Part shown: positions 11,195 to 28,687 of the stretch, piece after piece
Numbering within the stretch: the first letter of the stretch is position 1
Layout: each line of letters opens with the position of its first letter
NCBI GenBank assembly: GCA_964645155.1
Contig: CAZYBG010000003.1
Span: forward strand, 7,093-71,092
Length of the DNA stretch: 64,000 nt
DNA from: an uncultured Rhodobacterales bacterium
Lineage (GTDB): Bacteria > Pseudomonadota > Alphaproteobacteria > Rhodobacterales > Rhodobacteraceae
Reading direction: 5' to 3'
Made by a program: the position numbers and the translations under genes
Notes under the pieces: generated by a model
Database searches by the model: none
Seen by the model: only the letters and a program-made list of their open reading frames with translations
Told to the model about the DNA's origin: nothing

Positions 11195-11493
11195 CGCTGA
11201 TCCTGCGCCTTTCGCTGCCGCTGTCGCTGTGGCTCGCCTGCTTCAGCGCCGTCTACGGGCTGCAGGGCCTGGCCTGCTCGCGCCACTGGCCGCCGGGGCT
11301 CGAGGCCCGCCCGGTGCTGGTCGGAGCCGCTGCGCTCGCGATCCTGCTGCAGCTCGGGCTGTTCCGGCTGGCTGCGCGGGACCCGGCCGGCGCCGACCCG
11401 GCCGCCAAGCTTGCGTTGCCGCTCTGGCTGACCGCGCTCGTTGCCTCCGGCTGGACGCTGCTGCCCACCGTCTTCACCACGATCTGCGGCTGA
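11191..11493 (+). CDS. Small membrane protein (possible oxidase subunit IV-like)
   Basis: 100-aa ORF with ATGA overlap to subunit I/III. Three hydrophobic segments. Position is equivalent to small subunits in oxidase operons. Confidence 0.45.
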   Translation: MTLILRLSLPLSLWLACFSAVYGLQGLACSRHWPPGLEARPVLVGAAALAILLQLGLFRLAARDPAGADPAAKLALPLWLTALVASGWTLLPTVFTTICG

Positions 11494-11565: not shown

Positions 11566-12723
11566 TCAGGCCAGGCGCTCGAGGATCGCGGCGACGCGGC
11601 CGGCCGCGGCGGGGCCGGGGCGCTGGGCATGGAACCTGGCGAGCCGCAGCGCGACCGCGCCGAGGCACCAGTCGAAGCCCGGTCCCGCAGCGGCCCGCAC
11701 CATGGCAGCGGCGGCCGCGACGGTCGCCGTCGGCAGCGCGCCGTCGGCCTCGGCCTGCCAGAGCCGCCCGTAAAGCTGCGCAAGGTCGTAGTCGGGCGGG
11801 CCGAGCGCGAGGCTTTCGGTGTCGATCAGCACGCTTCGCCGGCCGTCGAGGAACAGGTGCTCGAGCTTCATGTCGCCATGGATCGGCCGGAGGGCGAGGC
11901 GGGGCACGCGTGCCTCGAGGCGGGCGAGGATGGCCTTCATCGGCGCCAGCGCGGCGGGGACGGTGACGCGGGCGAGGTCGAGGCAGTCGCGCCCGCGGCG
12001 CAGGAGCGCCGCGGCACCGAGCGTGCGGACCGGGGTGACCCGTGCCCGCCAGAGCCGGGCGAGCGCGTCGATGGCCTGGCCCATCGGCGCGGGGTCGCCG
12101 GCGGCAGCAAGCGCTGCCTCGAGCGGGATGCCGGGCGCCGCACCGTAGCCGATGGCGGCCAGCGCGGCGTCGGTCCCGGTGACTGGCGCGACGCCCACGG
12201 GCGTGCGGCGCAGCGCATCGGCCAGCGCCGCGTTGACCTGCGCAAGCGCCTGCACCGGCTCGTCGCGGATCAGCTTGACGTAGGCGGCCGCACCATCGGC
12301 CCGGGCGCAGCGGAACGTGCAGGAGAGGCCCGGCCGGTAGCGAAGCAGGACCGGCACGCCGGCCGGCGCGCCGCCGATCAGGGCCGCACCGGCCTCGGGG
12401 TAGGTCTTGAGGAACGCGCGGATCTCGGGCATCCGGTGATCCTGCGGGAACGGCTCGAAAAGCGCGCGGGTGTCGCGGTCGAAGACTGCGGCGCGGTTCC
12501 GATCAGCCAGCCGGCTGGCCTTGTCGCCGGCGAAGAGCCAGAGCGTTCCCTGGCCGGCCACCCCCTGCCCCGGCCCGCCGATCGAGAGCTGGACGATCGC
12601 GCGCTGTCCGGCCCGATAGCGCAGCCGCATCACCTCCACCCGCTCGGCCGCCGCGATCCGGCGCAGCGCGGCGGCATCAAGGCGGCTCAGCCCGGGCAGC
12701 GCCGGGTCGTCAATCGCGATCAT
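11566..12723 (-). CDS. Protein-kinase-like fold phosphotransferase (APH / Kdo-WaaP-like), paralog 1
   Basis: ATG 12723 (MIAIDDPALPGL). Catalytic loop IHGDMKLEHLFL and metal-binding block LIDTESL. Last gene of the REC-GT operon, overlapping the upstream gene by 14 nt. Confidence 0.65.
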   Translation of the reverse strand: MIAIDDPALPGLSRLDAAALRRIAAAERVEVMRLRYRAGQRAIVQLSIGGPGQGVAGQGTLWLFAGDKASRLADRNRAAVFDRDTRALFEPFPQDHRMPEIRAFLKTYPEAGAALIGGAPAGVPVLLRYRPGLSCTFRCARADGAAAYVKLIRDEPVQALAQVNAALADALRRTPVGVAPVTGTDAALAAIGYGAAPGIPLEAALAAAGDPAPMGQAIDALARLWRARVTPVRTLGAAALLRRGRDCLDLARVTVPAALAPMKAILARLEARVPRLALRPIHGDMKLEHLFLDGRRSVLIDTESLALGPPDYDLAQLYGRLWQAEADGALPTATVAAAAAMVRAAAGPGFDWCLGAVALRLARFHAQRPGPAAAGRVAAILERLA

Positions 12724-13957
12724 CGCGCAGCGCCTCGCGCAGCAGGGAGCCGAGCACCGCATCGGACATCCCGGTGAAGGCATGGATCATGGCAAGCCGG
12801 AGGAGCGCCGCCCGCCGCCAGGGCCAGAGCCCCGGCCGCGCCCGGCGCGGCAGTGTGCCGGCGAGGGCGGCCGCGGCCGCAGCGGTATGGGTCCGGCCGA
12901 TCAGCCCGGCGAGGACAAGATGCGCCTGATAGTTCCCTGCGTCGAGCGCCGGATCGCCGAGGCAGAGCGTATCGAAATCGAGAACCCCGATGCGGCTCCG
13001 CGTCGCGCGGAGCTGCTTTTCGTGCAGGTCGCGGTGGCAAGGCGCGAGCGGACCCGCCGCCGCCAGCCGCGCCGAGACATCCGCCACCGGCCGGCGCAGC
13101 GCCACGGCCAAATCGGGAAAGGTCGCCGCCGTCCGCGCCAGCCACTGGCCGAGCAGCGCCGCCTCGTCGGTCCCCTGATGGCGCGGCAGGTCGCTGACCG
13201 GCAGCGCCTGCAGCGCCGCGATCGCCGCGCCGATCCGCGCGCCGGCAGCGGGGTCGAAGGCCGCGGGCGCCTGCCCCGGCAGTGCCGAGATCAGCGACAG
13301 CCCCAGTGTCTCGACCTGGCCCAGAGGCTCCGGGATGCGAAGCACCGGCGCGTCGGCCAGCGCGCGCCAGAGGGCGAGGTGCCGGTGCGCACGCGCGGCG
13401 GCCTCGCCGCACTTGACCGTGCGGAGCCGGGCATAGAGTACGCGGGCCCCCAGATCGAGCCGCAGCACCGCGCGCCTGCCCAGGCGGTGGGCGGCCAGCG
13501 TGACGCGCACCGGCCCCGGATCCCGGCCGAGAAGTGCCGCCAGAACCTCGCGCGCGAAGCCCGCGTCGTGCAGCAGCCGCAGCCCCGGCAGCCGCGCGTC
13601 GAGCCCCGGCCCGCGCAGGACCAGCCCGCGGGCCGGATCGGCGACGACCGGCGTCGCGGCCAGACCCTCGCGCTGGCCGTTGCGCCGCTTGCGAAGGCTT
13701 GCGGCCTCTTGCCGGGCATGGCCTTCGGGGTCGTCCGGCACATGCTCGGCAAGAACGATCCGCTGCTGCCCGTCACGCATCCGGGCGCGGAACTGGAACT
13801 GCACCGGGCGGTGGCCGGGAAAGTGCGTCCGCTCGAGGACCAGCCCGAGGGGCGCTTCGCCCAGATGCGCGGCGAGGCTTTCGGTCGAGGGCCCCTGCCG
13901 CAGGACGGTGGCGAGCGCGCCCTCGCCGCGGCGCCGACCGATGCAGGGCGCAGTCAT
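12710..13957 (-). CDS. Protein-kinase-like fold phosphotransferase (APH / Kdo-WaaP-like), paralog 2
   Basis: ATG 13957 in an ATGA overlap with the ABC gene stop. Catalytic loop CHRDLHEKQL and VLDFDTL block. N-lobe similar to paralog 1 (LPGL..L.DA). Confidence 0.65.
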   Translation of the reverse strand: MTAPCIGRRRGEGALATVLRQGPSTESLAAHLGEAPLGLVLERTHFPGHRPVQFQFRARMRDGQQRIVLAEHVPDDPEGHARQEAASLRKRRNGQREGLAATPVVADPARGLVLRGPGLDARLPGLRLLHDAGFAREVLAALLGRDPGPVRVTLAAHRLGRRAVLRLDLGARVLYARLRTVKCGEAAARAHRHLALWRALADAPVLRIPEPLGQVETLGLSLISALPGQAPAAFDPAAGARIGAAIAALQALPVSDLPRHQGTDEAALLGQWLARTAATFPDLAVALRRPVADVSARLAAAGPLAPCHRDLHEKQLRATRSRIGVLDFDTLCLGDPALDAGNYQAHLVLAGLIGRTHTAAAAAALAGTLPRRARPGLWPWRRAALLRLAMIHAFTGMSDAVLGSLLREALRDDRD

Positions 13958-15723
13958 GTCCCGACCTTCCGTGCCCCCTCGGGCGGGCGGTCGGCGAAGC
14001 GCCCGTCGCGCAGCTCCACGGCCCGGTCGGCCAGCGACAGCGACAGCGCGTCGTGGGCGACGAGCAGCGTGGTGCGCCCGGCCGCGGCCCGGCAGAGCCC
14101 GGCGAGCAGGCTCTGCGCGGTGGCGCCGTCGAGGCCGGTGAGCGGCTCGTCGAGGATGAGGATCGGCGCATCGCGCAGGATCGCCCGGGCGATGGCGATG
14201 CGCTGCCGCTGGCCGCCCGACAGCGTCTCGCCGCGTTCGCCGAGCACCGTCTCGTAGCCGTCGGGCAGCGCGCGGACAAAGCCGTCGGCCTCGGCCGCCC
14301 GCGCGGCGGCCACGATCTCCTCCTCGGTCGCGTCGAGGCGACCGTAGGCGATGTTGTCGCGCACCGTCGTGCCGAACAGAACGCTGTCCTGCAGCACGAC
14401 CGAGATGTTGTTGCGCAGGCTGTCGAGCGTAAAGTCGCGCAGATCCCGCCCGTCGATCCGCACGCTGCCCGCCGCGGGGTCGTAGAACCGCATCAGGAGC
14501 CGCGCGACGGTCGACTTGCCGGCGCCGCTGGGGCCGACCAGCGCCACGACTTCGCCGGGGCGGACCTCCAGGCTTGCGCCCCGCAGGACCGGCGCACCGC
14601 CGGGATAGGCGAACGTCACGTCGTCCACCTTCACGCGGCCCTCGAACCGCGGCGCGGCGACGGCGTCGGGGCGTTCGGCCACGTCGGGCGCGAGGTCGAA
14701 GATCTCGAGCAGGCGCTCGCCAGACGCGGTTGCCTTCGCGACCCGCGCCATCATCGCCGCCATCTTGCGGACCGGCTTGTAGAGCGTCGCGAGATAGGCG
14801 GTGAAGACCAGCAGGTCGCCGGGGCTGATCGCGCCGCCGCGGACCCGCATCACGCCGTACCACAGCACCAGCGCGGTCCCGAGCGCCAGGAGTACCTGCG
14901 TCACCCGGTCCATGTTCGCGGCAAGCTTGGTCGTCACGACCCCGGCTTCGGCCGAGGAGTTGTTCTGCCGGGCGAAGCGTTCCTCCTCGTGCGCCTCGCG
15001 CGCGAAGCCCTTCACCACGTTGATCGCCGAGATGCCCTCGGTCATCACCACCGCGATCTTCCCCTCCTTTCGGCGCTGCCGGCGCGCCGCGCCTCGGATC
15101 CGCGTGCCGAAATGGCGCGCGACCAGCCACAGCGCCGGCAGGATCGCCAGCGCAGCCAGCGTCAGCCGCCAGTCGAGCCAGGCCATCACCGCGACTGTCA
15201 ACCCGATCACCAGCGTCCGGGCGGCGAAAAACACCGCCGCGTCGATCAGCAGGTCGCGCATCATCCGAACGTCGCCGGTCAGCCGCGAGATGATATCCCC
15301 CGAAGAGGCCGTGTCGTGGAACGAATGCGACAGCCGCTGCACGTGCCGGTAGAGGTCGAGCCGGATCTCGGCCACGACCTTCTGGCCGACGGCGGCGATG
15401 AGGTATGCCTGCGCGAAGCCCGCCGCGCCCGCGACGAGCGCGATGGCGAGAATCGCGCCGGCCGAGGCCGCAAGCAGGCCGTCCCCGGCGCCGAAAGTCG
15501 CGATCATCCAGCCGGTCACCGGGTCGGGCTGCGGTTGCGGAAGCAGGATCCCGTCGAACACGACCTTGAGCGGCCAGGGCCGCAGCACCTCGGCGACGGC
15601 GACCGCGATCATTGCGAGGAATCCCAGCGCAAGCTTCCTCCGGTGGGGGCGCAGATGCGGCCCCATCCGGCGAAAGAGGCGCACCAGCGCCCCGGCTTCG
15701 ACCGCGCGCCGCCGGCCGCTCAT
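13954..15723 (-). CDS. ABC exporter, fused permease/ATPase (MsbA/NdvA-type)
   Basis: 589 aa. Six-TM N-terminal domain followed by Walker A GPSGAGKST, signature LSGGQRQRIAIARAIL and Walker B LILDEP. Confidence 0.85.
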   Translation of the reverse strand: MSGRRRAVEAGALVRLFRRMGPHLRPHRRKLALGFLAMIAVAVAEVLRPWPLKVVFDGILLPQPQPDPVTGWMIATFGAGDGLLAASAGAILAIALVAGAAGFAQAYLIAAVGQKVVAEIRLDLYRHVQRLSHSFHDTASSGDIISRLTGDVRMMRDLLIDAAVFFAARTLVIGLTVAVMAWLDWRLTLAALAILPALWLVARHFGTRIRGAARRQRRKEGKIAVVMTEGISAINVVKGFAREAHEEERFARQNNSSAEAGVVTTKLAANMDRVTQVLLALGTALVLWYGVMRVRGGAISPGDLLVFTAYLATLYKPVRKMAAMMARVAKATASGERLLEIFDLAPDVAERPDAVAAPRFEGRVKVDDVTFAYPGGAPVLRGASLEVRPGEVVALVGPSGAGKSTVARLLMRFYDPAAGSVRIDGRDLRDFTLDSLRNNISVVLQDSVLFGTTVRDNIAYGRLDATEEEIVAAARAAEADGFVRALPDGYETVLGERGETLSGGQRQRIAIARAILRDAPILILDEPLTGLDGATAQSLLAGLCRAAAGRTTLLVAHDALSLSLADRAVELRDGRFADRPPEGARKVGT

Positions 15724-16892
15724 GCCGCGGCGCTTTCGGCGGCGGCGAGCCGCAGGACCGCCCGGGCGTTGCGGGTCCAGTCATGCCGCGCGCCCTCGGC
15801 GGCGGCGGCGCGGGCCATCCGGCGGCATGCGGCCGGGCTGCGCGAGAGGCGCAGCATCTCGGCCGCGAGTGCGCCGGCATCGCCCGGCGGCAGGAGGACC
15901 GCGGCGGCCGAGCCGCTGAGCAGTTCCGACGTCTGGCCGATGTCGCTGGCCAGCACCGGCCGGCCCATGGCGAGGTATTCGTAGAGTTTGAGCGGCGAGA
16001 AATAGTGCGTCTCCGATGCGGGATAGGGCGCGGTCGCCACATCCATCCGCGCGATCAGCGGCGGCAGGGCGGCGTGGTCGACCCACCCCGCCAGTGTCAT
16101 CGCCCCGGCGATTCCCGCGCCGGCGACGAAGCCCTCGATCCAGCCGCGTTTCGGCCCGTCGCCGAGGACGAGGAGATGCGCCCGCGGCTCGGCCGCGCGA
16201 AAGCCGCGGAACGCCTCCATCAGCACATCGACGCCGTGCCACATCTTCAGCGATCCGGTGAAGCCGACGACAAAGGACCCCGCGGGGATGCCCGGCAGAT
16301 CGGCCGGCGCCACATCGGGGCGGAAATGCGCGGTGTCGACCGCGTTGCCGACCACATGGACGCGGCCCGCCGCCGCGCCGGCGCCGAGCAGCCAGTCCGC
16401 GACCTGCCCCGAGACGGCGACAAGCGCGCTTGCCCCGGCGATGACCTCGGCCTCGATCGCCGCGGCCTCGGCCTCGCAGACGAGGCTCCGGAACGCCGCC
16501 TGCTCGAGGCGGAGCGGCGCGTTGACCTCGACCACCGCCGGCACGCCCAGCCGGCGCCCGGCGCGAATGCCCGCGGCCGACCAGAGCGAGTAGCGTTCGT
16601 AGATCAGGTCGAAGGGCCACTCCGCATGCAGCGCCACCAGGCGCGCCGCGATCGCGTCGGCCTGCGCGATCGCGGCGCGTTCCTTGTCGCCGCGGCCGGC
16701 TCCGGCGACGGTCTGGCCGACTTCCTCGACGATCAGCCCGCGGGGCAGCCCCTCGCCGCGACGCGCGGCGACGGCGCGCGCCTCGTGGCCAAGCGCCGCG
16801 AAGGCGCGCATCATCTCCTGGACGTGGATCGAGGCGCCCTTCTCGCCGAAGACCGGGATGCCGCGATCGGCGCTGACATAGGCGATGCGCAT
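15720..16892 (-). CDS. Glycosyltransferase family 4
   Basis: Start MRIAYVSADRGIPVFGEKGASIHVQE. C-terminal GT-B block FSPLKLYEYLAMGRPVLAS. ATGA overlap with the ABC gene and 1-nt TGATG overlap upstream. Confidence 0.8.
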   Translation of the reverse strand: MRIAYVSADRGIPVFGEKGASIHVQEMMRAFAALGHEARAVAARRGEGLPRGLIVEEVGQTVAGAGRGDKERAAIAQADAIAARLVALHAEWPFDLIYERYSLWSAAGIRAGRRLGVPAVVEVNAPLRLEQAAFRSLVCEAEAAAIEAEVIAGASALVAVSGQVADWLLGAGAAAGRVHVVGNAVDTAHFRPDVAPADLPGIPAGSFVVGFTGSLKMWHGVDVLMEAFRGFRAAEPRAHLLVLGDGPKRGWIEGFVAGAGIAGAMTLAGWVDHAALPPLIARMDVATAPYPASETHYFSPLKLYEYLAMGRPVLASDIGQTSELLSGSAAAVLLPPGDAGALAAEMLRLSRSPAACRRMARAAAAEGARHDWTRNARAVLRLAAAESAAA

Positions 16893-18106
16893 CAGGCGGC
16901 CTCTCCCTCGAGGATCAGCGCGGGGTTCAGCAGAAGCCGCCGCAGCACGCCCGCATTGGCTTGGAGATCGAAGAGCAGTTCGGCCCGCGCCCGGCCGGCG
17001 CATCCCATGGCCCGTGCCCGGGCCGGATCGGCGAGCACGATTGTCAGCACGTTGGCCAGCGCCTCGGCATCGCCCGGCGGGCAGAGCTGCCCGGTCACGC
17101 CGTCCTCGACGATCTCGGGCCCGCCCGAGACCGTGGTGGTGACGACCGGCAGCGCGCAGGCCATCGCCTCCAGCAGCACGGTCGGCAGCCCGTCGCGGTC
17201 GCCGGTATCGGTCACGACGCAGGGCAGGACGGCGGCCTCGGCCCGCGCCATGCGCCCGGCCAGCACCTCCTGCGGCAGCGGCGGCTCCAGGGTGATCCGG
17301 TGCTGCAGCCCCAGCGCGACGATCCGCGCGCGCAGGTCGGCTTCGCCCGGCCCGCCGCCAATCAGCGCCAGCCGGAACTCCACGCCCCGCGCCGCCAGGA
17401 TGGCGCAGGCCTCGACCAGCACCTCGAAGCCCTTCTTCGGCACCAGCCGGCCCACCGCGATCAGTTGCCCCCGCCGGCGGGTGCGGGCCGGGGCGAAGGC
17501 CCCGAGGTCGATCCCGTTGTAGAGCCGCACGATCCGCGCCTCGGGGCAGAGCGCGCGCAGGTGGCGCGCATTGTAGTCGGACACGGTGACGACGAAGGCG
17601 GCCTGCCGCAGCTTCGCCCGGCGCATCGCCGCGTCGGCCTCGGGCGTGACATAGGTGTGGTAGATGTCCCTGGCATGCGCGGTAAACGAATAGGTGCCGC
17701 CGATGGCCCGCGCGGCGAGGCAGGCCACGGTGGTCGCGTCCGAGCCGAAATGCGCGTGCAGATGGCTGATGCCGCGTGCGCGCGCGGCCTCGGCGACCGC
17801 CTCGGCCTTCGCCAGCAGCGCCGCGGTCTCGCGGGGCGTCTTGCCCGAGAACAACGCGGCATCGCCCGGCGCAGGCGTCCCGCCGGCGTCCCGCGCGGCG
17901 TTCTTCAGCACGATGACCTCGGCCTTCAGGTCGGCGAGGCGGGCGTGGCGCGGTTCGTCCGGCGGCTGCAGCAGCGAGAACACATGCGCCTCGGCCCCCG
18001 CCGCCTCGTGGGCGAGCAGCTCGTTCAGGATGAAGGTCTCGCTGAACCTCGGAAACCGCTTGAGCACATAGCCGATGCGGCGGCTGGCGTCAGAGGGCGC
18101 GGGCAT
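16892..18106 (-). CDS. Glycosyltransferase family 4 (WcaL-like)
   Basis: Start MPAPSDASRRIGYVLKRFPRFSETFILNE. GT4 block GDRDGLPTVLLEAMACALPVVTT. Overlaps the upstream gene by 17 nt. Confidence 0.8.
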   Translation of the reverse strand: MPAPSDASRRIGYVLKRFPRFSETFILNELLAHEAAGAEAHVFSLLQPPDEPRHARLADLKAEVIVLKNAARDAGGTPAPGDAALFSGKTPRETAALLAKAEAVAEAARARGISHLHAHFGSDATTVACLAARAIGGTYSFTAHARDIYHTYVTPEADAAMRRAKLRQAAFVVTVSDYNARHLRALCPEARIVRLYNGIDLGAFAPARTRRRGQLIAVGRLVPKKGFEVLVEACAILAARGVEFRLALIGGGPGEADLRARIVALGLQHRITLEPPLPQEVLAGRMARAEAAVLPCVVTDTGDRDGLPTVLLEAMACALPVVTTTVSGGPEIVEDGVTGQLCPPGDAEALANVLTIVLADPARARAMGCAGRARAELLFDLQANAGVLRRLLLNPALILEGEAA

Positions 18107-19664
18107 GGGGTGCCTCCTCGCCGGCCTGAGGATCGCTCTCGCGCAGCAGCGATGCCAGCACGCCGGCGGCACGGGTCACGCCGTCGAGATCGGGCAGCGC
18201 GCGCGGGACGGGCGGCGGGGTCCGCATCAGCCGGGCCAGCGCCTCGGCGGACAGCGCCTCGCGGTCGAGATGCCGGGCGAGGCCGTGCGCCGCCAGCGCC
18301 TCGGCGCGCATCCGCTGCTCGGCCGACGGGCCGAGCCGCGGGACGGTGACGATCGGGCAGCCGACGGCGAGCGCCTCGTTGATCGTGTTATAGCCGGTCA
18401 TCGTGATGAGAAGGTCGGCCTCGGAGAGGAGCGCGGGGAAATCGGCGACGTGCCGGCGCAGGTCGATCCCGGCGGCGCGCGCGCGCCCCTCCGCCTCGTC
18501 CTGCAGCTCGCTGTCCATCAGCGGGCCGGTCACCACGGTGACCTGCGGGCGGCCGCGCCGGGGAAGCCGGGAGACGGCCCCGATCGCCGCCTCGATCAGC
18601 GGGAACGCGTCGCGCCCGCCGCCACCCGAGACAACGACCCGCCGCGGTGCGCCCTGCCCGGCCGGGCGCGTCCTGCCGCGGCGGGCGGTGGTGACGATGC
18701 CGCAGGGCGTGACCCGGCCTGGCAGCAGCGCGTCGAGCCCGTACGCCGCGGCGGTGGGGAAGAAGCCCGCATCACCATAGACGAGGACGCGGTCGTAGAG
18801 CGACGTGATCGCCCGGTCGGTGCCGGCGGCGGCCCAGGCGGCGCGCAGCCGCCCGGGCTCGTCGAGGATGTCGCGCAGGCCGAGCACGGTACGCGTCCGC
18901 CCGTCGTCGCGGAGGCGCTCGAGCACCGGCCGCAGCTCTCCCATCGCGCCCAGGGGCTCGTGGTCCACCAGAAAGAGGTCGGGGCGGAAGGCGCCGATCA
19001 CGCCGTCGATCACGCCCATGCGCATCGCCCGCGTCGTGGCGGCATCGAGCCGGAGCGAGCCGGCCTGGAACCGGTGGCGGCCGAGCTTCGCCAGCGACGG
19101 CAGCTTGACGTAGTCGACGCCGGGCACCGGGTCGAACATCATGCCGGCGGCGCAGCCGACGAGCATCAGCACCGAAAGGCCCGGCACCTGCGCCGCCAGC
19201 CGGGCGGCGATGGCCGAGTTCCGCCGCATGTGGCCAAGCCCGATGGTGTCGTGCGAGTACATCACGACCGAGGGCCCGGACCGCGGCCGCCCGACCGGCG
19301 GCCCGGCCTCGTTCAGCAGCGCCGCAGCGAGTTCCCGCAGGCGCGACAGCGCGAAGGGCTTGGCGAGGAAGGCCGCCACGGTCAGCTCCTCGGCGCGGGC
19401 GCGGCTTGCCACGCTGTCCTGCCCGGTCATCACGATGACCGGAACCTGCGCCAGGCACTCGGCGGCCTCGCCGATCACGCTCAGGCCGTTGCCGTCGCCA
19501 AGCGAGATGTCGATGATCACGAGGTCGAACCGCCCGGCGGCCAAGGCGGCGCGGGTCGCAGCGGCGGTGGGCGCGTGCACCAGGTGCACGCCCTCTCCCG
19601 CCAGGGCGCGGGCGATGTTGCGGGCCAGCACCGGTTCGTCTTCGGAAAGCAGGATGCGTTTCAT
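18090..19664 (-). CDS. Response-regulator receiver domain fused to a MurG-like (GT28 / Glyco_trans_1_3) glycosyltransferase
   Basis: ATG 19664 (MKRILLSEDEP). REC residues are intact (DE pair, VIIDISLGDGNG phospho-Asp, VMTG, AKPF). After a Pro/Gly linker comes a GT-B domain: HDTIGLGHMRR, VVVSGGGG, LLITMTGYNTINEAL. Confidence 0.8.
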   Translation of the reverse strand: MKRILLSEDEPVLARNIARALAGEGVHLVHAPTAAATRAALAAGRFDLVIIDISLGDGNGLSVIGEAAECLAQVPVIVMTGQDSVASRARAEELTVAAFLAKPFALSRLRELAAALLNEAGPPVGRPRSGPSVVMYSHDTIGLGHMRRNSAIAARLAAQVPGLSVLMLVGCAAGMMFDPVPGVDYVKLPSLAKLGRHRFQAGSLRLDAATTRAMRMGVIDGVIGAFRPDLFLVDHEPLGAMGELRPVLERLRDDGRTRTVLGLRDILDEPGRLRAAWAAAGTDRAITSLYDRVLVYGDAGFFPTAAAYGLDALLPGRVTPCGIVTTARRGRTRPAGQGAPRRVVVSGGGGRDAFPLIEAAIGAVSRLPRRGRPQVTVVTGPLMDSELQDEAEGRARAAGIDLRRHVADFPALLSEADLLITMTGYNTINEALAVGCPIVTVPRLGPSAEQRMRAEALAAHGLARHLDREALSAEALARLMRTPPPVPRALPDLDGVTRAAGVLASLLRESDPQAGEEAPHARAL

Positions 19665-19736
19665 CTGGGCCTCGTCCGATTGCCCCGACCCTGCCTGATC
19701 GCAGGCCGGGACGGGACCGTCCAGACGGGCGGGGCT

Positions 19737-19748
19737 GGGGCAAATGCC
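19737..19748. promoter_or_regulatory. GGGGCAAATGCC element, copy 1 (REC-GT / histidine kinase divergent region)
   Basis: The identical 12-mer recurs at 24254-24265. Related GGGGCATATCC (19760-19770) and GGGAATATGCC (19788-19798) lie nearby. Confidence 0.4.
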
Positions 19749-19881
19749 GGGCACCTTCTGGGGCATATCCCCCAGGGCTGGCGGACCGGGAATATGCCGC
19801 CGGCCCAATCGTATACCTCAGGGTGAGGGCAGGCCGCCTGTGCCTTCCGTTGATTGCGCGAGCTCGCGCCGGGGTCTAAAC

Positions 19882-21291
19882 ATGAGCCGGGGACGGACCA
19901 CAGTCATGGGATTGCTCGACGTGTCGACCATCCTCGCGCTGCGGCACTCGCCGCACTACACCAAGGTGCTGTCGCTCTTCGTGGTCACGAGCTTCGTCGC
20001 GATCTTCGCGACGACCAGTCTGCTCAGCGGATACCTGGCCAACTACATGACCCGCCACATGATGCAGCGCGATGCCGAGGTGACGATGGAGTTCCTCAAC
20101 TCCATCATCCGGGCCGAGGACGCCAGCGACGACTTCTTCGGCGACACGGCCGACATCCGCGCCCCGGCGACGGCGGAGTTCTTCGCCCGCGTCGCGCGGC
20201 TGCCGCATGTGTTCCGCGCCAACGTCTACTCGAGGAGCGGCCGGGTGCTCTGGTCCAGCGATGCCGAGATGATCGGCCGGACCTTCGCCGACAACGCCGA
20301 GCTTGCCGCCACGCTGAAGGGCGAGCTGCACCCCGAGATCGTGGCGGTGGAGCCCGTCGGGAAGGACGAGCATGTCGGCCTGCCCGACACGGTCGAGGAG
20401 TTCATCACGTTCCACATCCCGATCTGGTCACGCGACGGCAGGATCGTGGTCGGCGCGGTCGAGGTCTACAAGGCGCCGCAGAGCCTGCTCGACGCGATCC
20501 GCGGGATCGAGCGGCTGGCGTGGATCGATGCGCTCATCGCCGGCGCGGTCCTGTTCGCGCTGCTGGTGGCGGTCGTTGCCTATTCCACCCGGATCCTGCG
20601 CCGGCAGGAAGCGCGCCTCGTCGAGGCCGAGCGCCTCGCAGTGGTGGGCGAGATGGCGTCCGCCGTCGCGCACGGGCTGCGGAACCCGCTGGCCGCGATC
20701 CGCTCCTGCGCCGAACTGCTGGCCGAGGACGATCTGCCCGACAGCAGCCGCCGCGGCATGCTGGACATCATGAACCAGGTCGACCGGCTCGAGACGTGGA
20801 TCCGCTCGTTCCTCAAGCGGACCCGCGAGGCGCCCGCCTCGGCATCCGACATCGCCCATGTCGACTTGGTCCTGCAGCGTTGCATCCAGGGTTTCCAGAC
20901 GCAGCTCAGAAAGCGCGGGATCCGGGTCGAGATCAGCGGGTCGACCGACACGCCGGTCGTCGCCGCCCGCTCGGAGGAGCTGGAGCAGATCCTCAACACC
21001 ATCCTGTCGAACGCGGTCGAGGCGATGAAGACGGGCGGCGTGCTCTCGCTCGGCTGGCACGCGGTGCCGGGCGGGCGCGTTGCCATCGACATCGCAGACA
21101 CCGGCCCGGGCGTGAGCGACGAGCAGATGAAGCGCCTGTTCGTGCCGTTCCAGACCGGCAAGGCGGCGGGCCTCGGCGTCGGGCTCGCGCTCGGCCGGCG
21201 CATCGCCGAACGGATCGGCGGCACGCTCGACCTGAAGAACCGCCCCGATCGCGGGGTGGAAGTGACGCTGACCGTTCCTGCGAGGGCCTGA
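19882..21291 (+). CDS. Sensor histidine kinase (two TM helices, periplasmic loop, HisKA + HATPase_c)
   Basis: ATG 19882. H-box EMASAVAHGLRNPLAAI, N-box ILSNAVEAM, G-boxes DTGPGV and GLGVGLAL. Divergent from the REC-GT operon. Confidence 0.85.
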   Translation: MSRGRTTVMGLLDVSTILALRHSPHYTKVLSLFVVTSFVAIFATTSLLSGYLANYMTRHMMQRDAEVTMEFLNSIIRAEDASDDFFGDTADIRAPATAEFFARVARLPHVFRANVYSRSGRVLWSSDAEMIGRTFADNAELAATLKGELHPEIVAVEPVGKDEHVGLPDTVEEFITFHIPIWSRDGRIVVGAVEVYKAPQSLLDAIRGIERLAWIDALIAGAVLFALLVAVVAYSTRILRRQEARLVEAERLAVVGEMASAVAHGLRNPLAAIRSCAELLAEDDLPDSSRRGMLDIMNQVDRLETWIRSFLKRTREAPASASDIAHVDLVLQRCIQGFQTQLRKRGIRVEISGSTDTPVVAARSEELEQILNTILSNAVEAMKTGGVLSLGWHAVPGGRVAIDIADTGPGVSDEQMKRLFVPFQTGKAAGLGVGLALGRRIAERIGGTLDLKNRPDRGVEVTLTVPARA

Positions 21292-21292
21292 C

Positions 21293-22510
21293 ATGAGTGA
21301 CATCCTGATCGTTGAAGACGAAACCGTCCTGGCGCGGTCGATGGTGAGCTTTCTGGAACGGCGCGGCTTCTCCGCGGTCTATGCGGTCGATGCGGCCTCG
21401 GCCCGGACGCTGGCCGAGCGGGAACGCCCGCGGCTCGCCATCCTTGACTACAAGCTGAACGACGATGACGGCCTCGATCTCCTGGCCTGGATGCGCGCCG
21501 CCGACCCGCGGGTGCAGGTGGTCATGATGACCGGCCACGGCGATGTCGCGGTCGCGGTCGAGGCGATGAAGCGCGGCGCCCGGGACTTCCTGGTGAAGCC
21601 GACGCCGCTGGCCGCCATAGCGTCGATCGCGCGCGAGCTGATGCTGGACGAGTTCCAGGGCGGGCTCGACCGCACCGGCGCGGAGCGGATCGTCGGCCGG
21701 TCCTCGGCGGCCAACGCGCTGCGCACCTCGGTCCGCAAGCTCGGCCGGCCCGCGCCGAACGGCGCCCGGGCCGGCGTGCTGGTCGTCGGCCCGCAGGGCG
21801 CCGGCAAGACGCTCGCCGCCACCGCGCTGCACGAGGAGGGCGCGCCCGATAGCCCGCTTGTCGTCCTCGACTGCGCACTCGCTGTCGGCGACATCGGTGA
21901 CGCCGTGGCCCGCGCAGGGCGCGGCACGCTTCTGCTGCGCCATGTTGCCGCGCTCCGCACCGAGGAACAGGCGGCGCTTCTCGGCGCGCTCGAGGCAGCC
22001 GAGCATCCGCCCGCGCTGATCGCCACGACAACCGGGCACCTGACGCCCGGGCCGGAGTTCCTGCCGGGCCTGCTCTATCGCATCCAGGTGGGCTGGATCG
22101 ACATCCCGCCGCTGGTCGATCGCGCCGCCGACGTGCTGCCGATCGCCGACATCTTAGCCCGCCGCATCGCGCGCGACCGCGGCGAAGCGCGGCCGCGGTT
22201 CAGCGCCGCCGCCCGGGCGCGGCTGGTCGAGCATGACTGGCCGGGCAACGTGGCGGAACTCGCGAACTGCATCGGGCGCGCCATGCTCCTGCAGTCGGAC
22301 GGCACGATCGAGGCCGACCATGTCCGGCTGATCGGCCGTGGGCCGGGGGACGAGGACGGGATGCCGACCCTGCACGCGCTCGAGGTCAGCGCGATCACCC
22401 GCGCGCTCAGTCGGACCGGGGGCAACGTCTCGCGGGCGGCCGAGCTCCTCGGGATCAGCCGCGACACGCTGCGCTACCGGATGGAGAAGTTCGAGGTGCC
22501 ACGGCACTGA
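21293..22510 (+). CDS. NtrC-family response regulator with degenerate AAA+ domain (no GAFTGA) and Fis-type HTH
   Basis: REC domain (ILDYKLNDDDG, MMTGH, VKP). Walker A-like GPQGAGKT. The region where ESELFGHEKGAFTGA..LFLDEI normally sits reads LDCALAVGDIGDAVARAGRGTLLLRHV. WPGNVAEL block and C-terminal HTH GNVSRAAELLGISRDTLRYRM. Confidence 0.8.
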   Translation: MSDILIVEDETVLARSMVSFLERRGFSAVYAVDAASARTLAERERPRLAILDYKLNDDDGLDLLAWMRAADPRVQVVMMTGHGDVAVAVEAMKRGARDFLVKPTPLAAIASIARELMLDEFQGGLDRTGAERIVGRSSAANALRTSVRKLGRPAPNGARAGVLVVGPQGAGKTLAATALHEEGAPDSPLVVLDCALAVGDIGDAVARAGRGTLLLRHVAALRTEEQAALLGALEAAEHPPALIATTTGHLTPGPEFLPGLLYRIQVGWIDIPPLVDRAADVLPIADILARRIARDRGEARPRFSAAARARLVEHDWPGNVAELANCIGRAMLLQSDGTIEADHVRLIGRGPGDEDGMPTLHALEVSAITRALSRTGGNVSRAAELLGISRDTLRYRMEKFEVPRH

Positions 22511-23180
22511 GGACGCCGAGCACCTCGGCCGCGAAATCGGGGCGCCCGGCCCCCCGCAGCTTGAGGTGCCGGCGGATCAGCGCGAGCCGCAGCAGCCGCG
22601 CGAAGCGGGCGGCATCGCAGGCGCCGCCGAGCGCCCGCCATGCGGCCGGCACGGCGGCCCGCCAGTGGTCGAGCCGTCCGCGGAACGAGGGGCCCGCCCA
22701 GGCGCTGGTGGCGAGATGCGCGACGAAGTTCGCGAGATCGGCCTCGGCCGGGCCCAGCGCCATGTCGTCGAGATCGACGATCCAGACCTCGCCGCCGGGG
22801 CTGGCGACAAGCTGTCCGAGGTGAAAGTCGCCGTGCAGCGTCGCCGCCCCGGTCGGGACCGGTCTGTCGAGCGCCCTTGCGATGGCGGGCGGCACCGCCC
22901 CCTCGAGCCGCGGCCTGATCCGCAGTGCGGGGTCGTAGGCCGGCAGCCCCGGCACCACCGCCCGCTGCAGCGCGAGCAGCGGCGCAAGCAGGTCGGCGAG
23001 CGGCAGGGTCACGATGCCCGGCCCGCTGCCGCCCTCGATCCGGGCGAAGATCACGGCACCGGGCGCCGCGCCCCGCCACGCCTCGGGCGTCGCCACCCCC
23101 TGGGCGCGAAGCACCCGGCTCCGCCGCAGCGCCTCGGCGGCCCGGGCGGGGCTGTCGTGGTGCTTGGCGAAGCCGGTCAT
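22455..23180 (-). CDS. Short protein-kinase-like fold phosphotransferase (APH-like), paralog 3
   Basis: ATG 23180 in an ATGA overlap with the upstream GT gene. Catalytic loop LHGDFHLGQLV and IVDLDD block. Its 3' end overlaps the convergent NtrC-like gene by 56 nt. Confidence 0.6.
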   Translation of the reverse strand: MTGFAKHHDSPARAAEALRRSRVLRAQGVATPEAWRGAAPGAVIFARIEGGSGPGIVTLPLADLLAPLLALQRAVVPGLPAYDPALRIRPRLEGAVPPAIARALDRPVPTGAATLHGDFHLGQLVASPGGEVWIVDLDDMALGPAEADLANFVAHLATSAWAGPSFRGRLDHWRAAVPAAWRALGGACDAARFARLLRLALIRRHLKLRGAGRPDFAAEVLGVLSAVAPRTSPSGSAACRG

Positions 23181-24175
23181 GCCCGGCCCAGGATCTGGCC
23201 CAGGATCAAGGCCGCCGCCCGCGCAGCGCCATCTGGGCCGAGGTCCACCGGGGCACGCCGCCGCGGCCGTGCGACCTGCCCGACAAGCCAGTCCGCCGCC
23301 GCGTGCACCTGCGCCGGGTCGAGCGCGTGGCCAAGCCGCGGCCCCCAGAGCCGCGCCCGTGCCGCCTGATCGTCGAGGCTCCGCGGGATCGCCGCGAGCA
23401 GGGCGGGGGTGTCGGTGCTCGCCAGTTCCAGCACCGAATTGTAGCCGGCGGTAGAGATCGCGAGATCGGCGGCGCGGAACACCGCATCGAGATCGGGGCC
23501 GGGGTCGAAGACCTCGTCGGCCTCGCCCAGCGCGGCGCCGGCGGCCCGCGGCCCGAGCGCCTGCCGCACGTAGAGGGCGCCGTCGAGCTGCGCGCGGGCC
23601 AGCGCGATGACCCGGTCGAGCAGCGGGTAGAGCGCCGCGCGGCTCTGCTCGGTGCCGCCGCCGCCGGTGGCCAGAACGACGCCGCCGGGCTGCGCGCCGG
23701 GGCCGCGGACACCGGCCCGCCGCGCGATCCAGCCCACCGCCTCGACCGTCCGCGCGAAGCCGGGACCGGCGGGCGGCATCCAGTGACCGGGCGGGTTCGG
23801 CACGATCACCGCATCCCACGGCCGGCCGCCGCCCCGGCGGAACCCCTCGATGCTGGCCGCCGGCGTCTCCCGCAGGACCTGGATCATCGGCAGGTCGAGC
23901 GTGGCGGCATCGGGCAGCCGCAACGTGTCGAGCACCGCGGCGGCCGCCCCGCAGTCGCGCAGCGCCGCGGCCATCGCGCTGCGGGGCACGACGAGGATCG
24001 CCTGGAACGCCGCCCGATCGGCATCGGTCAGCCCGTCGGGTTCTGCGTTGCAGAGCAGGATCGGCCGCGCCGCGCCGGACGCCGCGCGCACCGCCCGGGC
24101 GATGGCGGCGGCCCGGCGGAGATGCCCAAGGCCGGACCGGCCCGTGGCAAGGAATGCGATGGGGCGGTTCGTCAT
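23177..24175 (-). CDS. MurG-like (GT28 / Glyco_trans_1_3) glycosyltransferase, paralog of the GT domain of the REC-GT fusion
   Basis: Start chosen at ATG 24175, which has AGGA 4 nt upstream; the track start GTG 24214 lacks an RBS. Motifs GRSGLGHLRR, VVLATGGGG and LAISTAGYNSVLEL parallel those of the REC-GT protein. Confidence 0.7.
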   Translation of the reverse strand: MTNRPIAFLATGRSGLGHLRRAAAIARAVRAASGAARPILLCNAEPDGLTDADRAAFQAILVVPRSAMAAALRDCGAAAAVLDTLRLPDAATLDLPMIQVLRETPAASIEGFRRGGGRPWDAVIVPNPPGHWMPPAGPGFARTVEAVGWIARRAGVRGPGAQPGGVVLATGGGGTEQSRAALYPLLDRVIALARAQLDGALYVRQALGPRAAGAALGEADEVFDPGPDLDAVFRAADLAISTAGYNSVLELASTDTPALLAAIPRSLDDQAARARLWGPRLGHALDPAQVHAAADWLVGQVARPRRRAPVDLGPDGAARAAALILGQILGRA

Positions 24176-24253
24176 CGTCCTGCCTGCACCAGAGGTCCCG
24201 GCGACAGTTGCCACAACCCGGCGCCCGGCGCGACCGCCACAGCCGCGGCGACC

Positions 24254-24267
24254 GGGGCAAATGCCCC
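24254..24267. promoter_or_regulatory. GGGGCAAATGCCCC palindromic element, copy 2 (upstream of the GT28-like/kinase operon)
   Basis: Arms GGGGCA / TGCCCC around AA. Followed by the ATGCC-AGTC-GGCAT inverted repeat at 24295-24308. Confidence 0.4.
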
Positions 24268-24331
24268 GCGAGACGCGCCCGACGGAATCAGGAAATGCCA
24301 GTCGGCATCACGTGATAGAGTGCGCCTTGCG

Positions 24332-25888
24332 ATGCGAGCGCCGGACCGTGACAAAAGCTACCTGAACGCCCTTGGCGCGGGCATCGTCCTGTCGCTTTCC
24401 GGTGCCGTGGGCTGGGGCTGGCTGGCGTGGCAGCAGACCTGGGACGAGGCGGAGCGGACGGCCCATGACCGCGCCGTCATCGTGGCCAACTATGTCGAGC
24501 GGCTGATCCAGACGCAGACCGCGACCCACGTCTTCGCCGAGGCCGGCGCGCAGTCGCGGGCCAGGGGCTGGCTGCGGTCGCGCGACTTCCACCGGATCCT
24601 CGCGGCGACCGACGACGCGCAGCCCTTCACCATCGGCACCGCGGTGGTCGGCTTCGACGGCGAGATCGTAGCGTCAAGCCGGCTCTATCCCGTCGAGGGG
24701 CAGAGGTTCGGGTCGCGGGACTATCTCGACGCGATCCGCGGCGGCGCGGTGATCTTCGTCGACCGCATCCGGACCGAGCCGAACGGCGTCGACGCCCTTG
24801 TCATCGCCAGCCGTTTCCGCACGCCCGAAATCGAGGGCGCGATCGTCTCGGCGATCGAGACGACCATCCTGCGCGACTTCCTCAGGCAGACTGCCCCGGG
24901 CCCGCAGGAGGCCGCGTCGCTGATGACCGAGGCGGGAAAGCTGCTCGTCCGCAGTATTCCGTCCGAGCCGACCTGGCTGGCGCCCGGCCCGTGGACCGTG
25001 GCGGTCGAGGACGGCTACATGCAGACCCGCGTCCGGGCGCAGACCGACGGGGTCGAGCGGCTCTATACCACCATGCGGGTCGGCGACCTCCCGCTCTACG
25101 CGACGTTCGGCGTGCCGGTCTCGGCCATCACCTCGGCCTGGCTGCGGTCAGCAGCGCTGGTCTGGGCGATCCTCCTCGGGTCGATCCTGCTGATGACGGT
25201 GCTCAGCGTCATGGCCCGGCGGCGGATGCAGCACGAATACGAACTCCGGCTGTCGCAGCAGGAGGCCGACTTCGCCCGGCGCACCGCGCGCCATCAGGCC
25301 GAGTTGCTCAAGGAAGCCCATCACCGGATCAAGAACAACCTCGCGCTCGTGGTGTCGATGATCGGCATCCAGCAGCGGCTGAAGGGAAAGCTCGACGCGG
25401 TGGACCTGCGTGCGCGGATCGGGGCGATCGCCGAGATGCACGACCTGCTCTACCGCTCGGCGACGGGCGGCGATGTCGACCTCGCGCTTCTGCTGAACCG
25501 CGTCCTCGACAGCCCGGCCATGGTTCCCGCCGAAAGCGGCATTGCCGTCCGGCGCCGTCTGGACGGCCCGGTCAGCATCTCCGCCCGCATCGCCGCGCCG
25601 GTCGCGCTGGTTGCGATCGAGCTTGTCGCCAACGCAGTGAAACACGCGTTTCCGGGCCGCGCGCCCGGCACGGTCGAGGTCGCCCTTGCCCGCACCGCCG
25701 ATGGCGCCGTGCTGACGGTCAGCGACGACGGCGTAGGCATCGGGGCGACCGACCGCCATTCCGGGCGGTCGATCGTCGATGCCCTCGTCGAGCAGGTCGA
25801 CGGCACGCTGGCCCAGACCAGCCCGGCGGGCGACGGCACGACCTGCGAGCTGCGCTTTCCCATCCGGGCGCCCGATCCGGCGGGCTGA
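24332..25888 (+). CDS. Sensor histidine kinase, HisKA_2/HWE-type, with periplasmic Cache-like domain
   Basis: ATG 24332 (MRAPDRDKSY). TM helix, ~260-aa extracytoplasmic region, TM helix. H-box EAHHRIKNNLALV and an HATPase region (ELVANAVKHAF, DDGVGI). Confidence 0.8.
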   Translation: MRAPDRDKSYLNALGAGIVLSLSGAVGWGWLAWQQTWDEAERTAHDRAVIVANYVERLIQTQTATHVFAEAGAQSRARGWLRSRDFHRILAATDDAQPFTIGTAVVGFDGEIVASSRLYPVEGQRFGSRDYLDAIRGGAVIFVDRIRTEPNGVDALVIASRFRTPEIEGAIVSAIETTILRDFLRQTAPGPQEAASLMTEAGKLLVRSIPSEPTWLAPGPWTVAVEDGYMQTRVRAQTDGVERLYTTMRVGDLPLYATFGVPVSAITSAWLRSAALVWAILLGSILLMTVLSVMARRRMQHEYELRLSQQEADFARRTARHQAELLKEAHHRIKNNLALVVSMIGIQQRLKGKLDAVDLRARIGAIAEMHDLLYRSATGGDVDLALLLNRVLDSPAMVPAESGIAVRRRLDGPVSISARIAAPVALVAIELVANAVKHAFPGRAPGTVEVALARTADGAVLTVSDDGVGIGATDRHSGRSIVDALVEQVDGTLAQTSPAGDGTTCELRFPIRAPDPAG

Positions 25889-28482: not shown

Positions 28483-28571
28483 GGCAGGGTTCCCTTCCTG
28501 GCGTCGGGCAGGGGCGCGCCCGGGCCCCTCTCTGCGGCCGTCGCGGGCTTGGTTCGATCCGGGCCTGTCTC

Positions 28572-28596
28572 AACCGGCGAGGCGGGCAGACGTTCC
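28572..28596 (-). promoter_or_regulatory. EcfG-type promoter candidate (GGAAC-N16-GGTT) toward the VOC gene
   Basis: Plus strand AACC 28572-28575 and GTTCC 28592-28596, about 90 nt upstream of ATG 28482. Confidence 0.55.
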
Positions 28597-28662
28597 CGAG
28601 CGGCCCTCGGCGCGCGGCCGGGCGCGACCCCGGCTTCCGCCCGGCGGGATGGGCCGCAAGGG

Positions 28663-28687
28663 GGAACATGTGCCGCCCTGCCCGGTT
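28663..28687 (+). promoter_or_regulatory. EcfG-type promoter candidate (GGAAC-N16-GGTT) toward Mn catalase
   Basis: GGAAC 28663-28667 and GGTT 28684-28687, 33 nt before ATG 28720. Confidence 0.6.

Follow-up and report, generated by a model that had tools for sequence, protein, structure and literature searches.

A widespread and uncharacterised glycosyltransferase, kinase and exporter cassette of Proteobacteria with candidate dual two-component control

Introduction

In the export systems typified by MsbA, NdvA (ChvA) and HepA, an ABCB-fold fused half-transporter shares one operon with soluble GT-B enzymes, and the product is assembled on the cytoplasmic face of the membrane and then exported, without Wzx/Wzy, Wza/Wzc or a synthase. 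Here we describe a cassette of ten genes (A to J; Table 1) with this same arrangement, located in 64,000 nucleotides of DNA from an uncultured Rhodobacterales bacterium (GenBank assembly GCA_964645155.1, contig CAZYBG010000003.1, positions 7,093 to 71,092), a stretch that we call the window throughout. Unlike the MsbA, NdvA and HepA systems, the cassette has no NdvB-type GT84 enzyme, no lipid A genes and no HepB/HepC, and its exporter (C) scores below the curated cut-offs for these families; those systems, in turn, have no counterpart to its three APH-fold kinases (A, B and I) or to its receiver-fused glycosyltransferase (F). We read the cassette as a glycoconjugate pathway that depends on its exporter, has an unusual set of enzymes and is probably under two-component control at two levels; it is widespread and uncharacterised, and it fails the defining tests of the MsbA/NdvA/HepA, core-lipopolysaccharide (LPS) and WbdD families.

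Other described systems resemble parts of the cassette. Phosphorylation of the LPS inner core by WaaP, WaaY and KdkA, and chain termination by WbdD in ABC-dependent O-antigen synthesis, likewise set kinases of the protein-kinase-like fold in a glycoconjugate pathway that ends in an ATP-binding cassette (ABC) transporter, but the cassette kinases belong to the APH family and the cassette contains no Wzm/Wzt, methyltransferase, GT9 or GT30 gene. With MurG and the GT1 enzymes (OleD/OleI, GtfB/D and the UGTs), two of its glycosyltransferases, F and J, share the GT-B fold, an N-terminal G-x-G-H loop and a C-terminal nucleotide-sugar-binding domain; in contrast to them, F carries an N-terminal receiver, and F and J form narrow families of their own.

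A receiver fused to a BcsA-like GT2 enzyme has been reported from Methanobacteriaceae (PMC5847659), and it is the only receiver–glycosyltransferase precedent that we found in the literature. There, as in F, the direct fusion of receiver to glycosyltransferase implies phosphorylation-dependent control of glycan synthesis. F differs in that its output domain is of the GT-B type (GT1/GT28-like), in being bacterial, and in belonging to a dedicated operon that is accompanied by a parallel transcriptional response regulator. Literature searches on COG4671, on the domain combination and on receiver–glycosyltransferase fusions returned no paper on the cluster, and none of the ten proteins reached a curated NCBIfam cut-off, equivalogs included; a preliminary description of the locus, made from its nucleotide sequence alone, had likewise recognised no characterised pathway in it.

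Results and discussion

A conserved ten-gene cassette

The ten genes lie between positions 11566 and 24175 of the window. The window has a G+C content of ~72%, and its raw lists of open reading frames (ORFs) are crowded with shadow frames; gene calls were made from codon-position GC (GC3) frame plots, inspection of start codons and comparison with public contigs that encode an identical B protein. The boundaries of C, B and A match the independent gene calls on those contigs, and the public call for D agrees in length and stop, with the start of D falling outside the contigs. The exact look-up of B returned short Logan contigs only, and those of F and J returned no record. A plus-strand ORF at 12620–14257 was rejected as a shadow of B: it has the same middle codon position and no homology, and the public calls favour the minus-strand gene.

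The preliminary description had proposed a six-gene minus-strand operon with overlaps of 1–17 nt at its junctions, encoding in order a receiver-fused glycosyltransferase, two GT4 enzymes, a fused ABC exporter and two kinases, together with a minus-strand pair (J and I) that converges on the regulator H. All of this stands. The coordinates and overlaps are confirmed (F/E 17 nt, E/D 1, D/C 4, C/B 4, B/A 14 and, in the second operon, J/I 4), as are the positions of J and I, and every domain assignment in the F–A operon is borne out by Pfam (matches reported at E < 0.01) or by profile comparison. H and I are convergent genes on the plus and minus strands, respectively, whose 3' ends overlap by 56 nt (22455–22510); transcriptional interference or antisense RNA could thereby link the expression of the two. 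Neither Rfam nor tRNA scans gave a match in the window, and a megablast search of the whole locus against plasmids gave short ABC-domain matches only.

Table 1. Genes and candidate regulatory sites of the cassette, in window coordinates.
Feature	Position	Strand	Description
A	11566..12723	-	385 aa; APH/ELK-fold kinase paralog
B	12710..13957	-	415 aa; APH-family kinase
C	13954..15723	-	589 aa; fused type IV (ABCB/MsbA-like) ABC exporter, transmembrane plus nucleotide-binding domain
D	15720..16892	-	390 aa; GT4 retaining GT-B glycosyltransferase
E	16892..18106	-	404 aa; GT4 retaining GT-B glycosyltransferase, EpsE/WcaL-like
F	18090..19664	-	Receiver (residues 1-119) plus GT1/GT28-like inverting GT-B glycosyltransferase (residues ~130-510)
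Palindrome pair	19737-19750 and 19760-19773		F-G divergent promoter region; candidate operator of H
G	19882..21291	+	469 aa; membrane sensor histidine kinase
H	21293..22510	+	NtrC-family regulator: receiver, degenerate AAA+, Fis-type helix-turn-helix
I	22455..23180	-	241 aa; truncated APH-fold mini-kinase
J	23177..24175	-	332 aa; stand-alone GT1/GT28-like GT-B glycosyltransferase
Palindrome GGGGCAAATGCCCC, perfect copy	24254..24267		79 bp upstream of the J start codon

To place the cassette among other genomes we scanned gene neighbourhoods across GTDB, taking a single genome for each species, and located the ten window proteins in the loci returned. Twenty distinct genomes have the order J I | H G | F E D C B A in full; they belong to Paracoccaceae, to Rhizobiaceae and Burkholderiaceae metagenome-assembled genomes (MAGs) and to unclassified alphaproteobacterial MAGs, and ~20 further loci are partial owing to contig ends or small rearrangements. 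The cassette is thus a conserved module. The closest orthologues, 66–69% identical, are from Paracoccaceae, and in Silicimonas algicola the ten-gene layout is identical, with different flanking genes. In Kiloniellales (Pelagibius, Denitrobaculum) the locus is rearranged, with B before C or the A kinase between G and F. Culturable carriers include Silicimonas algicola DSM 103371, Pelagibius litoralis DSM 21314 and Tropicibacter alexandrii. More distant variants occur in Hyphomicrobiaceae-like MAGs (loci L049–L053), where F has no receiver, J and I lie directly upstream of F, and G and H are absent or replaced, and in Gemmatimonadaceae (L055, L056), where F again has no receiver and F, E and D alone are visible on short contigs. 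Since the core J-I-F-E-D-C-B(-A) is kept where the two-component system is absent or replaced, the latter is a regulatory add-on.

Four glycosyltransferases of two kinds

F joins a receiver to a glycosyltransferase domain (Pfam Response_reg, 2e-16; Glyco_tran_28_C, 1.3e-10). The receiver belongs clearly to its family (60.6 bits against a cut-off of 30.2), and D9/E10, D52 and K102-P103 are invariant among 17 aligned sequences; all phospho-acceptor residues being kept, it is, as judged from its residues, a receiver of the phosphorylatable response-regulator type. The glycosyltransferase domain carries the motifs GLGHMRRN and GGGGRD, and the AlphaFold2 (AF2) model of F (pLDDT 79, pTM 0.79) is matched in Foldseek by OleI/OleD, a kitacinnamycin glycosyltransferase, GtfD, CalG, plant and bacterial UGTs and MurG (E-values 5e-12 to 4e-9). 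Homologues with the receiver–glycosyltransferase architecture form ~600 clusters, the named ones of which are all from Paracoccaceae and annotated only as 'response regulator'.

The homologues of J form 254 clusters. J matches Glyco_tran_28_C weakly in Pfam, but aligns over its full length with the F family (hhalign, 97.8%), and its paralogy to the glycosyltransferase domain of F, also proposed earlier, is thereby confirmed. The J family profile finds MurG in the PDB (2.5e-7), and the motifs GLGH..R and GGGG are invariant in the J alignment. F and J are paralogous inverting GT1/GT28-like GT-B enzymes. Enzymes of these families typically glycosylate lipids, lipid-linked sugars or hydrophobic aglycones. 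We rejected the identification of either protein as MurG itself: against the equivalog model TIGR01133 (cut-off 250 bits) F scores 35 bits and J 20.9 bits, with the C-terminal domain alone matching, although the likeness is real at the level of the fold.

D and E are retaining enzymes of family GT4, each above threshold for both constituent domains (Glyco_transf_4 and Glyco_trans_1_4 in D; Glyco_transf_4 and Glycos_transf_1, 3.5e-32, in E). Neither reaches any of the GT4 equivalogs EpsE, WcaL, stp2/3 or MshA, the EpsE score of E being 171 bits against a cut-off of 400. The nearest sequences in the PDB are sucrose-phosphate synthase Tll1590 and PimA for D, and PimB', Tll1590, BshA and MshA for E; HepE is also among the nearest solved relatives of the pair.

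Three APH-fold kinases

The preliminary description had likened three proteins of the locus to kinases of the Kdo/WaaP and APH kind. The APH half of that comparison survives: B matches Pfam APH at 2.2e-16 (60.8 bits) and I at 5e-8 (33.4 bits, C-lobe only), against a cut-off of 23.2 for PF01636. The Kdo/WaaP half reduces to a shared fold, in that none of A, B and I matches PF06293 at E < 0.01. Direct Pfam kinase matches of A are weak, and its APH/ELK-family membership comes from profile comparison, with full-length alignment to the B family (hhalign, 99.6%) and a match to corramycin phosphotransferase (3.6e-9). I likewise aligns with B (hhalign, 98.3%), matching the C-lobe of the latter.

Alignments of each family show that all three keep both the catalytic and the metal-binding Asp, as well as a basic residue at beta3. 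K150, H282-x-D284-x-K286-x-x-H289 and D301 are invariant in A; HRDLHExQ and DFDT are invariant in B, with R or K at the beta3 position; and in I, HGDxHxGQ and DLDD are invariant and an N-terminal F-x-K is kept wherever the sequence covers it. A, B and I are, on these motifs, paralogous APH-fold kinases with intact catalytic residues. I is only ~240 aa long with its F-x-K at the extreme N-terminus, and so appears to lack the strands of the glycine-rich loop that a normal N-lobe has. Its translational coupling to J is found in every case and hints at a J–I complex.

As regards relatives of solved structure, single-sequence searches of the PDB returned nothing usable for the kinases, and family profiles were needed. 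These found corramycin phosphotransferase (with the E-value given above) and APH(3')-VIII for A, MTR kinase (1.4e-5), maltokinase and glucosamine kinase for I, and LxmK (1.3e-7) as the best match for B; WbdD appeared only at E = 0.86 in the search with A. The AF2 model of B (pLDDT 91.7) has the APH fold, and Foldseek ranks APH(3')-IIa, APH(9), corramycin phosphotransferase, choline/ethanolamine kinases, LxmK, macrolide phosphotransferases, maltokinase and MTR kinase about equally. Like the Foldseek search with F and the PDB searches with C, D and E, this comparison confirmed the family without narrowing down the substrate.

A fused ABC exporter

C is a fused exporter (Pfam ABC_membrane, 4e-49; ABC_tran, 2e-35) whose nearest PDB sequences are ABCB4, P-gp, TM287/288, Sav1866 and MsbA. 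Its highest NCBIfam scores are to MsbA-related models (MsbA_rel, 422 bits against 780; MsbA, TIGR02203, 405.7 against 602). Three familiar identities were rejected. First, C falls below the equivalog cut-offs for the MsbA lipid A flippase, both that of TIGR02203 and that of NF008381 (314.6 bits, cut-off 867). Second, it falls below those for NdvA/ChvA (NF010178 and TIGR01192; 312 bits against 733 and 240 against 585), and the locus contains no large synthase gene; the HepA cut-off is likewise unreached. Third, a Wzm/Wzt pathway does not fit a fused ABC_membrane exporter, a locus and conserved flanks with no priming enzyme, and the poor WbdD match noted above.

Accessory genes in related loci

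To see what travels with the cassette, we clustered the flanking ORFs of all loci and searched the clusters with Pfam. The genes found are of three kinds. Some concern nucleotide sugars: a GalU-type UDP-glucose pyrophosphorylase lies between G and F in eight Paracoccaceae-type loci, a GalE-like epimerase between J and I in Pelagibius (L023), and Ugd (UDP-glucose dehydrogenase) occurs in four loci. Together they indicate UDP-hexose donors. Others are phosphatases at the end of the operon: a His_Phos_1 protein follows A in 12 loci, and Silicimonas (L001) has a HAD phosphatase. In L002 the phosphatase gene was confirmed to be preceded by a third GT4 gene, with which it overlaps by 4 nt, and L010 and L043 have a GT4-like stretch in the same place before the phosphatase.

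The remaining genes concern export. An AlgE-like outer-membrane barrel (Alginate_exp, 3e-37) is present in 10 loci, for example directly after A (L036), downstream of A on the same strand (L037, L038) or between the A kinase and F (L023). In the receiver-less variant, four loci have a different two-component pair and HlyD; in L049, alone among them, Pfam confirmed a neighbouring ABC ATPase and permease of the MacB type. As these are two independent envelope-crossing devices, the product would end outside the cytoplasmic membrane and often outside the cell. The AlgE-like pore, the three kinases and Ugd all fit an anionic product. One locus also has a heparinase II/III-like protein.

None of these accessory genes of relatives occurs within the 64-kb window. 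The earlier statement that nucleotide-sugar genes are missing accordingly holds in the vicinity of the window locus but not for the cassette at large, given the GalU, GalE and Ugd genes in the clusters of its relatives. Two carriers that are only distantly related have, upstream of J, a gene for a YkuD-type L,D-transpeptidase (a few hundred bp away in L001, at 4209–5003, and ~5 kb away in L049, at 1907–2785); the window has no YkuD-type gene near J.

Regulator, promoter and operator

G is a histidine kinase (Pfam HisKA and HATPase_c) in which two hydrophobic segments, identified by eye, flank ~160 aa that have no Pfam match, and it adjoins H in ~35 loci. H shares with the NtrC-family enhancer-binding proteins its receiver, AAA+ and Fis-type helix-turn-helix architecture, a cognate kinase gene upstream, and tandem palindromic upstream sites. 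The preliminary description had placed G and an NtrC-like regulator divergently from the F–A operon. That layout is correct, but the likeness of H to NtrC is incomplete: Pfam and NCBIfam match it in two separated stretches (receiver, partial sigma-54 AAA+ domain and HTH_8), and alignment with orthologues shows that in the window the GAFTGA segment, through which such regulators contact sigma-54, is deleted and the DE of Walker B is replaced by RH. No -24/-12 promoter lies upstream of F or J in the window. A candidate at 19740–19775 was rejected on account of its misfitting spacing and the absence of GAFTGA from H.

Across loci H falls into two classes. In the degenerate class (the window, Paracoccaceae and Kiloniellales), GAFTGA is deleted and the Walker B acids are replaced; these proteins are presumably ATPase-dead and sigma-54-independent. 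In the intact class (Rhizobiaceae, Burkholderiaceae and some other MAGs), H has ESELFGHERGAFTDA and the Walker B sequence LFLDE. The orthologues from Rhizobiaceae and Burkholderiaceae MAGs show every hallmark of a sigma-54 enhancer-binding protein, namely the GAFTGA loop, Walker A and B and a -24/-12 promoter. The two states were noted in the window and in loci L025, L028, L032, L034, L036, L037 and L044, the intact form carrying GAFTDA. The promoters follow the same division: a -24/-12 element (pattern TGGYNY-N5-TTGC) lies 44–52 bp upstream of the F start in seven of nine intact-H loci, as against none of the 28 loci with degenerate H, and sigma-54 promoters also occur upstream of J in L028, L029 and L032. 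The NtrC of Rhodobacter capsulatus, too, is sigma-54-independent.

What the two classes have in common is a 14-bp palindrome, GGGGCAwwTGCCCC. In the window there are two copies 23 bp apart between F and G and one upstream of J, and of the four matches with at most two mismatches in the whole 64 kb, three are in the two promoter regions of the locus. Over 35 loci, the density of the palindrome (at most one mismatch) is 1.71 sites per kb within 300 bp upstream of F and 0.021 per kb elsewhere, a ~80-fold enrichment. It is kept upstream of F in Paracoccaceae, Kiloniellales and Burkholderiaceae loci, often as a pair ~23 bp apart, and is found upstream of J in several relatives. Both H classes thus retain the same palindromic element, which we regard as the candidate operator of H; covariation supports the link between H and the promoters, and binding of H to the element is the step that we infer. 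The covariation of regulator, promoter and operator ties both enzyme operons to H, and also indicates that the window lineage switched to sigma-54-independent activation with the operator retained.

The receivers of F and H are 34% identical without gaps and have an almost identical alpha1 segment, 'EDExVLAR', in common. Their similarity fits both being served by the kinase G.

Proposed pathway

Taken together, these data suggest to us a reading that has, in our judgement, about an even chance of being right: a short oligosaccharide or glycoconjugate based on hexoses is put together in the cytoplasm, phosphorylated and then exported by the products of the cassette, under two-level two-component control. 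G would sense a signal outside the cytoplasm and phosphorylate both H and the receiver of F. H would bind the palindrome upstream of F and J and activate the F–A and J–I operons, ancestrally through sigma-54 and, in the window lineage, independently of it. F and J (inverting) and E and D (retaining) would build a defined glycan from UDP-hexoses on a putative lipid or small-molecule acceptor, with the fused receiver perhaps switching the activity of F; A, B and I would add phosphates; and C would carry the product through the inner membrane. Passage of the outer membrane would fall, in other lineages, to an AlgE-like pore or a MacAB-like pump, and the phosphatase at the operon end may trim the product. 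The preliminary description had already suggested synthesis, phosphorylation and export of a glycoconjugate, a proposal that is strengthened here by co-conservation, the kinase motifs, the accessory genes and the shared operator and sigma-54 promoters, the phosphorylated product itself being a prediction.

A stronger version of this proposal is possible, and we put it forward tentatively: the exported product may be a multiply phosphorylated oligosaccharide or glycolipid of a previously undescribed class, and phosphorylation of the receiver may directly switch the first glycosyl transfer on or off. If this were true, a glycan pathway would be under the control of a single histidine kinase at two levels, transcriptional (via H) and post-translational (via the receiver of F). 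We know of no such dual control described for bacterial GT-B glycosyltransferases.

Several observations weigh against the proposed pathway. First, genes for a priming enzyme, a polymerase or lipid synthesis are missing from the cluster, so that the acceptor cannot be named. Second, in the window no nucleotide-sugar gene, phosphatase or outer-membrane component lies near the locus. Third, the beta3 Lys is replaced by Arg in most B-family sequences. Fourth, phosphorylation of a precursor, or self-protection, is as compatible with the data as phosphorylation of a finished glycan, because the closest solved relatives of the kinases act on antibiotics, choline, peptides or free sugars. Finally, that G phosphorylates F is something we infer from adjacency and similarity alone.

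Alternative products

The leading specific sub-case of the proposed pathway, possible but rather doubtful when taken by itself, is a phospho-glycolipid, in which the GT1/GT28-like enzymes glycosylate a membrane lipid (e.g. diacylglycerol), the GT4 enzymes extend the head group, the kinases phosphorylate it and C flips the lipid to the outer leaflet, from where it would reach the cell surface. The enzymes whose structures match F best (MurG, OleD, GtfD and the UGTs) act on lipids or hydrophobic aglycones, the GT4 relatives PimA and PimB' act on phosphatidylinositol, and C is closest to the lipid and amphipath translocators ABCB4, P-gp and MsbA. The receiver-less variant loci, moreover, have a MacAB/DevBCA-like pump, the kind that exports heterocyst glycolipids. 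However, no lipid-synthesis or acyltransferase gene is conserved with the cluster, and in 10 loci an AlgE-like pore lies in or beside the operon; to our knowledge such pores serve soluble polyanionic glycans and not lipids.

A less likely alternative is that the cassette makes a specialised metabolite or compatible solute consisting of sugar only, by way of phosphorylated intermediates. The kinases would then make phospho-acceptors or sugar-1-phosphates or mask the product, the glycosyltransferases would couple the units, the ABC pump would export the product and a phosphatase would unmask it, following the logic of the sucrose-phosphate and streptomycin-6-phosphate pathways. The best solved relatives of the kinases are in keeping with such a route (the corramycin, viomycin, spectinomycin and macrolide phosphotransferases, MTR kinase, maltokinase and glucosamine kinase), as are the GT4 relatives sucrose-phosphate synthase, MshA and BshA, whose acceptors are small or phosphorylated, the resemblance of F to antibiotic GT1 enzymes, and the His_Phos_1 or HAD phosphatase at the operon end in 13 relatives. 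Yet no aminotransferase, cyclitol synthase or dehydratase is conserved, nor is any other gene of the tailoring or core kind; in the window, no phosphatase gene lies in or beside the locus; and the outer-membrane pore and tripartite pump of relatives suggest a larger or amphipathic product.

Decoration of the LPS core or lipid A, in which the GT4 enzymes, the kinases and an MsbA paralogue would build and flip a phosphorylated core in the manner of WaaG, WaaP, WaaY and MsbA, seems to us improbable. The combination of GT4 enzymes with kinases of the protein-kinase fold does recall core assembly, and it is on MsbA-related models that C scores highest; but these scores miss both MsbA cut-offs by a wide margin (406 bits where 602 are required, and 422 where 780 are), and the kinases match APH PF01636 and leave Kdo/WaaP unmatched at the E-value limit given above. 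The cluster contains neither GT9 nor GT30 genes, it is linked to AlgE-like or MacAB-like export genes, and its patchy distribution and differing flanks are the behaviour of an accessory island.

Lastly, a pathway resembling those of ribosomally synthesised and post-translationally modified peptides, in which LxmK-like kinases phosphorylate a peptide that is then glycosylated and exported, is scarcely credible: although the class V lanthipeptide kinase LxmK (PDB 9DK1; PMC12141560) provides both the sole NCBIfam match (NF038156) and the best PDB profile match of B, the scores of B and A (32.5 and 24.2 bits) are far below the cut-off of 315, Foldseek ranks generic small-molecule kinases equally high, no LxmY-type lyase is among the conserved flanking or core families, and no conserved small ORF was noticed, with no systematic search for precursor ORFs having been made.

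Genomic surroundings

On the A side the cassette is bounded by an 896-codon stop-to-stop frame (8507–11194, plus strand), which by eye encodes a heme-copper oxidase subunit I with a subunit III-like C-terminal region, and by a 100-aa hydrophobic ORF after it (11191–11490, plus strand) that has no Pfam match. On the J side, and divergent from J, lies the gene for a sensor histidine kinase of the HisKA_2/HWE type (24332–25888, plus strand), whose N-terminal region is weakly Cache-like; it is not kept beside the cassette in other genomes.

Further out, a manganese catalase (28237–29553, plus strand) has an N-terminal extension of ~160 residues that has no Pfam match. A second sugar-related cluster, outside the conserved cassette, occupies 29925–38343 on the minus strand; it encodes three NAD-dependent epimerases/dehydratases, including a 661-aa fusion, and, side by side at 31996–34178, two CgeB-like proteins (Glyco_trans_1_2). 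Near the start of the window a GH68 levansucrase gene (146–1579) overlaps one for a GH32 enzyme with a Laminin_G_3 domain (1575–3641), and a gene for an 835-aa PQQ-dependent dehydrogenase (3759–6263) adjoins them; these three genes suggest a sucrose/fructan lifestyle.

Implications

If the proposed pathway holds, the cassette would represent a family of anionic glycoconjugates, secreted or on the cell surface, that is so far unexplored and that occurs in Proteobacteria of marine and soil habitats (Paracoccaceae, Kiloniellales and the Rhizobiaceae and Burkholderiaceae MAGs). How such bacteria interact with algae, particles and phages is shaped by the chemistry of their cell surface. A glycan operon with three dedicated APH-fold kinases would also widen the range of substrates known for that kinase family. 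The proposal would also offer a tractable case of direct two-component control of a glycosyltransferase, beside a transcriptional branch from the same kinase, and a natural experiment in regulator evolution, in which the same regulon and operator are found under a sigma-54-dependent regulator in some lineages and a degenerate one in others.

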